A stretch of 64,000 nt of DNA, taken from the NCBI GenBank assembly GCA_030064755.1, contig JASJEH010000001.1, positions 35,352-99,351 on the forward strand. Reading direction: 5' to 3'. Of this stretch, positions 51,679 to 52,555 are shown piece after piece. The translations under genes and the position numbers were made by a program. Under the pieces are notes generated by a model, which saw nothing but the letters and a program-made list of their open reading frames with translations, had not been told where the DNA came from and searched no databases. Within the stretch, counting starts at the first letter, position 1, and every line of letters begins with the position of its first letter. This DNA is from Methyloceanibacter sp. GTDB taxonomy: Bacteria; Pseudomonadota; Alphaproteobacteria; Rhizobiales; Methyloligellaceae.

Positions 51679-51708
51679 AAAAAGGCCTCCCCGAAGGGAG
51701 GCCTCTTG
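51679..51708. terminator. Bidirectional Rho-independent terminator between purH and the lipoprotein gene
   Basis: AGGCCTCCC-CGAA-GGGAGGCCT stem-loop, A5 on the left and a T-rich stretch on the right. Confidence 0.8.
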
Positions 51709-51732: not shown

Positions 51733-52362
51733 CTAGAGGCCATCCGGGTATACCGGCTGAGGCTGGTTCGGTGACGGCGGCTCACCCTTATGGGGGGCCT
51801 TCGGTGCATCCTCCGAAACCGTTGGCGGCACGACAATGGTTGCCGCGTCCTCGTCGACGACGACCGTCTTGCCCTCAGGCGTTGTCATGACGCCCTCGGC
51901 TTCCTCAACAACCACGGCCGGGGCGTCGTCCATGGCGGCGCTGTCCGGGTAGACTGGCTGCGGCTGGTTGGGCGAGGGCGGCTCGCCCTTGTGCGGGAGC
52001 TTAGGCGCATCTTCCGAAACCGTCGGCGGCACGGAGATAACGCCCTCCGTGACGTCCTCCTCCATCACCGCGGCAGGCGCTTCGTCCATGGCTGCCTCCT
52101 CAGGCGCGGCGGCCGGCTCTCCGGGTACCACAGGCTGTGGCTGATTCGGCGACGGCGGCTCGCCCTTGTGCTGCGGTCCATCAGGCGCCTCCGGCGGCGT
52201 GGGCGGCACCGAGATCGTCTCCTCGGTCGTCACCTCTTCGACTGCAGCCGGCTCTTCGGCAGCAGGTGCCGCATCCTTTTCGGCCGCGTCATCCGCTGGC
52301 CATTCACAGGCAGCAAGCAAGATCGCCGCCAGCAAAGCTCCACCCAAACCCACGTACTTCAT
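51733..52362 (-). CDS. Putative acidic Pro-rich lipoprotein with three conserved repeats
   Basis: Signal MKYVGLGGALLAAILLAAC with lipobox LAAC. Three copies of HKGEPPSPNQPQPV. Confidence 0.8.
   Translation of the reverse strand: MKYVGLGGALLAAILLAACEWPADDAAEKDAAPAAEEPAAVEEVTTEETISVPPTPPEAPDGPQHKGEPPSPNQPQPVVPGEPAAAPEEAAMDEAPAAVMEEDVTEGVISVPPTVSEDAPKLPHKGEPPSPNQPQPVYPDSAAMDDAPAVVVEEAEGVMTTPEGKTVVVDEDAATIVVPPTVSEDAPKAPHKGEPPSPNQPQPVYPDGL
51751..52170 (-). repeat. Three coding copies of the 14-aa motif HKGEPPSPNQPQPV
   Basis: Copies at 52129-52170, 51952-51993 and 51751-51792. Amino acids identical, codons differ. Confidence 0.95.
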
Positions 52363-52555
52363 GATCGCCCCCCGATCCAACGATTTCACGCGTAGTTCCA
52401 TAACAGGCATTTCCCGGAGCGTATCGCGAAAGGCCATGGATTTCCATGCTGCGCATCAAATCCTGGCCACGAATCCTCACTGGCAAGCAAAGAATGGCCG
52501 CCTCGTGGTGCGTAACCCCTGGCATTGGGCGTTTCGCGATGCGATGGCACCCAGT

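Follow-up and report, generated by a model that had tools for sequence, protein, structure and literature searches.

What is a short peptide kept for when a predicted lipoprotein contains it three times and seems to consist of little else? This question is raised by a small gene in the window (the whole stretch of 64,000 nucleotides of Methyloceanibacter DNA that was analysed). Short linear motifs have a central place in the cell biology of eukaryotes, and the main examples from the bacterial periplasm are the TonB and TolB boxes. Such motifs have rarely been defined in the bacterial periplasm, and here one peptide is kept across the disordered tails of the products of unlinked genes.

A predicted lipoprotein with three copies of one module

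The gene (positions 51733..52362, minus strand) encodes a protein of 209 aa that is acidic and predicted to be disordered, as judged from the open reading frame, its translation, the start methionine of its orthologues and an AF2 model. A longer alternative reading frame, in phase with this one, runs from position 52437, but the database orthologues start instead at the Met of 52362. Direct reading of the translation gives MKYVGLGGALLAAILLAAC as the N-terminus (52306..52362, minus strand), a putative signal peptide with a lipobox L-A-A-C that ends at Cys19. The same pattern is seen in the orthologues. The lipobox (MKYVGLGGALLAAILL-A-A-C19) agrees with the consensus [LVI][ASTVI][GAS]C and is kept in 28 database relatives. 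A Glu residue follows at position +2 after Cys19, and this L(A/S)AC-E pattern also recurs in orthologues. The mature protein has a pI of about 4.0, with 40 Pro and 40 Asp plus Glu residues among its 191 aa, and the AF2 model has a mean pLDDT of 55 and a pTM of 0.15, values that correspond to predicted disorder.

The neighbours of the gene are purH, which is convergent with it, and, upstream, a gene for an ATG22-like MFS transporter (PF11700; 52556-54049, minus strand), which marks the point at which the lipoprotein gene was inserted (see below). Between purH and the lipoprotein gene lies a GC-rich hairpin (51683..51704, no strand assigned) with a folding energy of -34 kcal/mol (z = -2.7), after which the minus strand reads UUUUUGCGUUU (U-tract). 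This hairpin is probably a bidirectional intrinsic terminator at the end of the lipoprotein gene.

Neither Pfam nor NCBIfam gave a match above noise when the lipoprotein was scanned. A profile search of the PDB returned just a chance match to a disordered human segment, no match of at least 0.9 was obtained from the ESM Atlas, and a full-text literature search for QPQPVYP retrieved 0 papers. The motif had been called undescribed when the sequence was first read, and the searches of Pfam, NCBIfam, the PDB and the literature agree with this. Taken together, the gene is real, and its product is, as predicted from sequence and model, a lipid-anchored, intrinsically disordered, acidic periplasmic protein.

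The sole conserved content of this protein is three copies of a module of about 35 residues. Within these there are exactly three copies of HKGEPPSPNQPQPV, whose first residues are aa 65, 124 and 191 (a spacing of 59 and 67 aa); the third copy stops 6 residues short of the stop codon. The sequence-only reading had described just this arrangement, three exact motifs with the last at the C-terminus, and the translation bears it out. With the module HMM, module 1 (35 aa, ETISVPPTPPEAPDGPQHKGEPPSPNQPQPVVPGE; 52117..52221, minus strand) is matched at 52-66 bits and is the most diverged copy; module 2 (GVISVPPTVSEDAPKLPHKGEPPSPNQPQPVYPDS; 51940..52044, minus strand) and module 3 (ATIVVPPTVSEDAPKAPHKGEPPSPNQPQPVYPDG; 51739..51843, minus strand) are matched as well, the latter being C-terminal and followed by just Leu and the stop codon. 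The first half of the module consists of a short hydrophobic, strand-like piece and VSEDAP (E-T-I-V-V-P-P-T-V-S-E-D-A-P), and the second half is the core G-E-x-P-x-S-x-x-Q-P-Q-P-V-Y-P-(D/E)-G, which is conserved across motif instances as GE.P.S..QPQPVYP(D/E)G. In an alignment of 23 modules G20, E21, S24, Q27, P28, Q29, P30 and P33 are invariant, and P7, D12, A13, P14, P17, P23 and V31 are nearly so. The motif thus lies in a region for which AF2 predicts disorder and, given the lipobox, would be displayed from a membrane anchor, as had been supposed at the outset.

At the DNA level the copies have diverged considerably. Of the 17 codons for HKGEPPSPNQPQPVYPD, 8 are identical in copies 2 and 3 and the other 9 differ synonymously, with 0 non-synonymous differences, as counted in the first description of this gene. 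Copy 1 had been said to differ from the other two at silent sites; it does so (7-8 synonymous differences over the same codons), and it also has 2 replacements in the last three codons. In the 14-aa core every pair of copies shows 5-8 synonymous and 0 non-synonymous differences by the method of Nei and Gojobori, with a proportion of changed synonymous sites of 0.5-0.8, and the binomial probability that all changes would fall on synonymous sites ranges from 1e-5 to 8e-4. These values uphold the view that the motif is under strong purifying selection. Furthermore, Tandem Repeats Finder detected no DNA-level tandem repeat in the lipoprotein gene, as expected of the old duplication that had been proposed. 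Because divergence is synonymous only and no repeat is left in the DNA, the copies are old and it is the peptide that is conserved.

A membrane-anchored cytochrome c as second carrier

Searches for the motif within this genome and across genomes brought out a second carrier, a cytochrome c, and the same pair recurs in the genus. In the present genome all 157 contigs of the assembly were scanned in six frames with a regular expression, which identified exactly one carrier besides the lipoprotein, a membrane-anchored, CycM-like dihaem cytochrome c of 459 aa (G000:C155:39249-40628, equivalent to L001:9250-10629, plus strand). An anchor helix at its N-terminus is followed by two cytochrome c domains of class I and by a tail of 135 residues rich in Ala, Glu and Pro. 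The assignment to the anchored class I cytochromes is based on two CxxCH motifs, a match to PF00034 (E = 1.5e-11) and the anchor helix in the AF2 model. One full module (ETVVNSPKVSEDAPKAPHKGEPPSPNQPQPVFP) lies within the tail, which ends in a short version (SSWPQPVYPDGKPDGVE-stop). In the AF2 model, for which 27 homologues were available, helix 2-31 and both haem domains are predicted with confidence, and residues 325-459, i.e. the tail, have a pLDDT of only 33-49. Docking of the tail back onto the haem domains was not seen in this model, and no fold was predicted for the module.

The cytochrome gene adjoins kdsB and pheA. No functional hint could be obtained from this gene neighbourhood, nor from that of the lipoprotein (purH and the MFS transporter). 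The number of haem domains in the cytochromes of the genus varies from 1 to 3, with three in P0102 and G481, which points to repeated domain duplication.

A stretch of 22 aa, SEDAPKAPHKGEPPSPNQPQPV, is identical in copy 3 of the lipoprotein and in the cytochrome tail. Over this stretch 14 of about 16 synonymous sites have changed, with 0 non-synonymous differences (binomial P = 2.4e-9). Recent gene conversion as the source of the shared stretch is ruled out by these silent differences. Selection on the peptide is able to explain an identity that has persisted despite 14 silent changes. The 14-aa core is likewise the same in the cytochrome and in all three lipoprotein copies, and pairs among these four differ by 5-8 synonymous and 0 non-synonymous changes.

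In addition, the variable positions of the motif (SPN, SES, SAS, SPS, SAN) agree better between lipoprotein and cytochrome of the same genome than between those of different genomes. The mean distance to the nearest variant is 2.18 mismatches, compared to 3.37 +/- 0.31 when the cytochromes are shuffled among genomes. The observed value was reached by 1 of 20000 shuffles, a figure that overstates the effect since the genomes are kin; the same limit applies to a set of six diverse genomes, also kin, in which the observed value was reached 5 times in 720 permutations. That the two genes change in parallel although they are unlinked is a sign either of a common constraint or of conversion in the past, and old gene conversion, rather than a common partner, could be the source of the co-variation.

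Conserved residues of the motif and the roles that they allow

Sixty motif instances were collected from 15 genomes. Ser is present at motif position 8 in 60/60 of these and is flanked by Pro, Ala or Glu. A His residue is found in 37/60 and is otherwise replaced by Ser (23/60), and Lys is found in 32/60.

The count for His bears on one of the four roles that had been suggested for the motif at first reading, a His-based metal site. Another of these roles was a precursor with several cores from which the motif would be released by cleavage. A display of metal ligands (His, Met or acidic residues) would be in keeping with the His-Lys or His-Met that precedes GE in many copies and with the very acidic context, and a precursor with the repetitive architecture of the lipoprotein. 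However, Ser takes the place of His in more than a third of the motifs, as given above, and Cys is lacking. No genes for a maturase, protease or exporter were found nearby, the neighbours being purH and the ATG22-like MFS transporter, and ordinary cytochromes end in the same motif, which is not what would be seen for a RiPP-type precursor. In either form, this explanation is extremely improbable.

The invariant Ser residue leads to a different explanation, namely that the module is a site of post-translational modification, most plausibly O-glycosylation of this Ser, and that the Ala/Glu/Pro-rich regions are ordinary linkers. The short terminal versions of the motif also retain the Ser, just before QPQP, and its setting is that of substrates of the PglL type, a stretch of low complexity, rich in Ala and Pro, in periplasmic lipoproteins or anchored proteins. 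The membrane-anchored cytochromes c5 and CcoP of Neisseria are O-glycosylated on Ser in Ala-Ser-Pro-rich linkers of this sort, as are Laz and further lipoproteins (PMC2924362; PMC11130364). The genome contains three genes with a Wzy_C domain, but no PglL_A signature was found in it. Moreover, conservation runs 9-10 residues past the Ser (QPQPVYPDG) and covers about 20 residues on its N-terminal side, and to our knowledge all known sites of bacterial O-glycosylation are far shorter. Nor does a sequon call for a C-terminal place, and it would have no obvious reason to co-vary between carriers. We consider modification unlikely on this evidence as a whole, even though it is the main rival of the docking peptide proposed below and the invariant Ser in its Pro/Ala context fits a modification site equally well.

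Distribution and origin of the module

When the module profile was run over 401 genomes of the order, matches were confined to the genus of the window, plus one out-of-frame artefact (L010 in G193), the sole match outside the genus, which was discarded. The full module is present in 28/61 genomes of the genus, and many of the remaining genomes are incomplete MAGs. M. methanicus R-67174 and M. superfactus R-67175 are among the members of the genus. The pair of lipoprotein and cytochrome recurs across Methyloceanibacter genomes. Genomes without the full module still finish the cytochrome with the core, as in ...GEGPFPSQPQPVYPEGPTPGQ (G092) and ...VDASQPQPVYPDGPR (G206).

An HMMER scan of 1.84 billion representative proteins gave only 47 matches to the module. 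The core itself is held by 111 database proteins, 28 of which have a lipobox and carry 1-5 copies of the motif, and 32 of which are cytochromes with 1-3 haem domains. In 81/111 carriers the last core lies at most 10 residues from the C-terminus, and in all carriers the module is predicted from sequence to face the periplasm. Three entries were set aside. One is a contig labelled Polyangiales (L129), a fragment of 2.8 kb that has probably been mis-binned, since its tail is a typical one of the Methyloceanibacter type; the other two (P0071 and P0035) look like chimeric assemblies.

In the sister genus the cytochrome is monohaem and has an acidic tail without the motif, and purH directly adjoins the gene for the ATG22-like MFS transporter, with no lipoprotein gene in between. 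Because purH stands directly beside the transporter gene there, the lipoprotein gene is a genus-specific insertion; most simply, it was derived from the cytochrome tail.

The reading frame of the lipoprotein is broken in two assemblies, at L005 (G172) and L108 (Methyloceanibacter methanicus R-67174, NZ_LPWG01000002.1), in both cases by frameshifts that lie within the repeats. For G172, indel errors of the assembly are suggested, rather than decay, by a further frameshift in the cytochrome gene. The two frame breaks reflect either sequencing error or, in some lineages, dispensability of the gene.

Other envelope and phage proteins with the motif

Apart from lipoproteins and cytochromes, several other proteins could be identified that carry the motif. 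A PQQ-dependent propeller of the alcohol/methanol dehydrogenase type, found in one genome (L067, G369:C5:76118-79140, minus strand), has the core GQPQPVYPEGPP in an N-terminal low-complexity extension of roughly 150 aa that is rich in Ser, Thr and Glu. Members of a cluster of nine proteins (P0034) are three-helix membrane proteins with one module at the end. A cluster of four (P0086) combines a signal peptide, two modules, three repeats of about 45 aa, a DUF11 domain and a PG_binding_1 domain. The repeats of about 45 aa in P0086 and P0108 (metagenome, 823-957 aa) are helical, and these proteins also have Cys-rich repeats and a Gln/Pro-rich tail. Finally, three small metagenome proteins of 148-170 aa (P0092, P0096 and P0109) are N-terminally anchored and have a Lys/Pro-rich rod behind two modules (GH.GE.PS.NQPQPVYP), so that they resemble TonB without its C-terminal domain.

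A phage protein of 422 aa (P0104/P0105, metagenome), present on three contigs, consists of a tail lysozyme (PF18013) and a spike of the Mu gp45 type (PF06890), and the linker between these two domains contains the exact host 16-mer HKGEPPSPNQPQPVYP. Relatives of P0104 were not found in IMG/VR, nor as prophage in 61 family genomes, where only motif matches were obtained. Judged by its sequence, the phage tail protein appears to have copied a host peptide. The presence of the host motif in a tail-tip protein that acts in the periplasm is what would be expected if the peptide docks onto a component of the host envelope, and gives a lead for further work.

The phage tail lysozyme and the PG_binding_1 protein, both bearing the motif, also call to mind the peptidoglycan. 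In this alternative the lipoprotein would be a covalent or non-covalent peptidoglycan tether comparable to Braun lipoprotein, and the motif an element that binds or is linked to the wall; a Lys acceptor for tethering by L,D-transpeptidase had been put forward at first reading. The protein is indeed a lipid anchor plus motif and nothing else, and no obvious Lpp-type protein is encoded in this locus. However, Lys is present in just over half of the motifs, the core has no conserved amine nucleophile, and the proteins end in Leu, Met, Glu or Gln rather than Lys (...YPDGL in the present one). AF2 predicts neither a coiled coil nor a helix, and there is no clear reason why a cytochrome c would be tethered to the wall. 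The Lys acceptor is not supported on these grounds, and the tether in its wider form is very unlikely.

The TonB-like design of the small anchored proteins bears on another alternative, in which the first half of the module, similar to a TonB box, would pair with the QPQYP-like second half, or either with TonB or TonB-dependent receptors, so that stickers separated by spacers form clusters bound to the membrane. The boxes of the two receptors of this genome (PPIEVIVDPEP, PPVEVTVDSP) are similar to strings that occur in the modules (ETIVVPPTV, ETIVDPPSA and GVTVTSPMV), and QPQYP is a TonB-box-binding motif at the junction between linker and domain in E. coli TonB (PMC7593965). In the anchored proteins P0092 and P0096 two modules are joined to a TonB-like KP-rich rod, and the multivalent design with acidic spacers (a trivalent lipoprotein, cytochrome tails with one or two modules) is of the kind that such clustering would use. 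On the other hand, the likeness does not go beyond very short strings of low complexity, QPQ..YP is absent from the one TonB_C protein of the genome, and in TonB the box is mainly contacted by a beta-strand of the folded domain, which has no counterpart here. AF2 also shows no intramolecular pairing. It is quite improbable, on sequence likeness of this kind, that the trivalent lipoprotein would gather anchored cytochromes, and occasionally a PQQ dehydrogenase, into respiratory clusters, and that the peptide would have been copied by the phage spike for docking at the same site during infection.

The only TonB-dependent receptors of the genome (L079 and L080, on G000:C100 and G000:C106) have long N-terminal extensions rich in Pro, Ser and Ala, and the TonB_C protein (294 aa, G000:C104) has an unusually acidic linker of Glu, Pro and Val.

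A candidate docking peptide on flexible tethers

We propose that the module is a lineage-specific docking peptide of the periplasm, carried on flexible acidic tethers, and that the lipoprotein is its domain-less trivalent version. We would put the probability of this reading, which draws on sequence comparison and structure models, at roughly 0.45, i.e. somewhat below even odds. Several properties fit a docking motif: conservation at the level of single residues within disordered regions, the distal position on the tether, the modular spread over different proteins, the co-variation between carriers and the copying by a phage. A docking ligand was also among the four roles suggested at first reading, and it is the best of these because the motif also ends the tail of an anchored cytochrome c throughout the genus.

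The module would act in trans, as a short linear motif, and would tie the distal end of flexible tethers to one common partner in the envelope. The lipoprotein would then derive from the cytochrome tail as a trivalent form without domains, inserted between purH and the MFS gene in this genus only, and might either serve as a multivalent adaptor or tether for the partner, or compete with the cytochrome for it. We infer both that the module binds something and what the lipoprotein would do with this binding.

If docking is indeed the role of the peptide, this points to an envelope partner that positions respiratory cytochromes in methane- and methanol-cycling bacteria, and the lipoprotein would provide a clean case of a multivalent adaptor without domains. 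If the module is a modification site instead, it would indicate a highly specific protein-modification system in Alphaproteobacteria. On either reading the general impact is limited by the range of one genus.

Comparison with known systems

The module is in no known family, structure or paper; as to kind, it may be placed among disordered periplasmic tethers with short functional peptides. Anchored class I cytochromes c with flexible linkers are exemplified by CycM of Bradyrhizobium, cy of Rhodobacter and c552 of Paracoccus. The cytochrome described here has the same N-terminal anchor and class I domains, and its counterpart in the sister genus is the plain monohaem form. In CycM, cy and c552, however, the linker lies between anchor and haem domain, whereas the Methyloceanibacter proteins have an extra tail of 130-200 residues after the haem domains, with the conserved motif at its end.

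Like the Braun lipoprotein Lpp, the lipoprotein is small, has no enzymatic domain and could tie the membrane to another layer of the envelope. It differs from Lpp in being disordered and acidic by prediction, in having no coiled coil, helix or C-terminal Lys, and in a motif whose Lys is not conserved.

The likeness to the TonB system is that of short periplasmic docking peptides. In its first half the module is similar to the TonB boxes that this genome encodes, and the core QPQ..YP ends a Pro-rich spacer, as it does in TonB (PMC7593965). In contrast to TonB, no TonB C-terminal domain follows the motif, the only TonB_C protein of the genome does not carry it, the likeness extends over 5-8 residues, and a link to transport is not evident.

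The nearest arrangement is that of the H.8 proteins of Neisseria (Lip, Laz, CycB c5 and CcoP linkers), in which a lipoprotein made of repeated peptide likewise occurs together with anchored redox proteins. In that system Lip is a lipoprotein consisting of repeats only, and the anchored redox proteins share an Ala/Pro-rich disordered stretch with a conserved Ser (PMC6277709; PMC2924362; PMC11130364). The two systems have no sequence relation, and taxon and lifestyle differ, the present carriers being from marine and soil methylotrophs. The spacers described here are rich in Ala, Glu, Pro and Val, but they are not AAEAP-periodic and contain no tandem repeat. The H.8 family (Lip, Laz) has imperfect AAEAP pentapeptide repeats, whereas the Methyloceanibacter proteins have a discrete motif of 17-35 residues, conserved residue for residue, at the tip of the tether, usually at the C-terminus.
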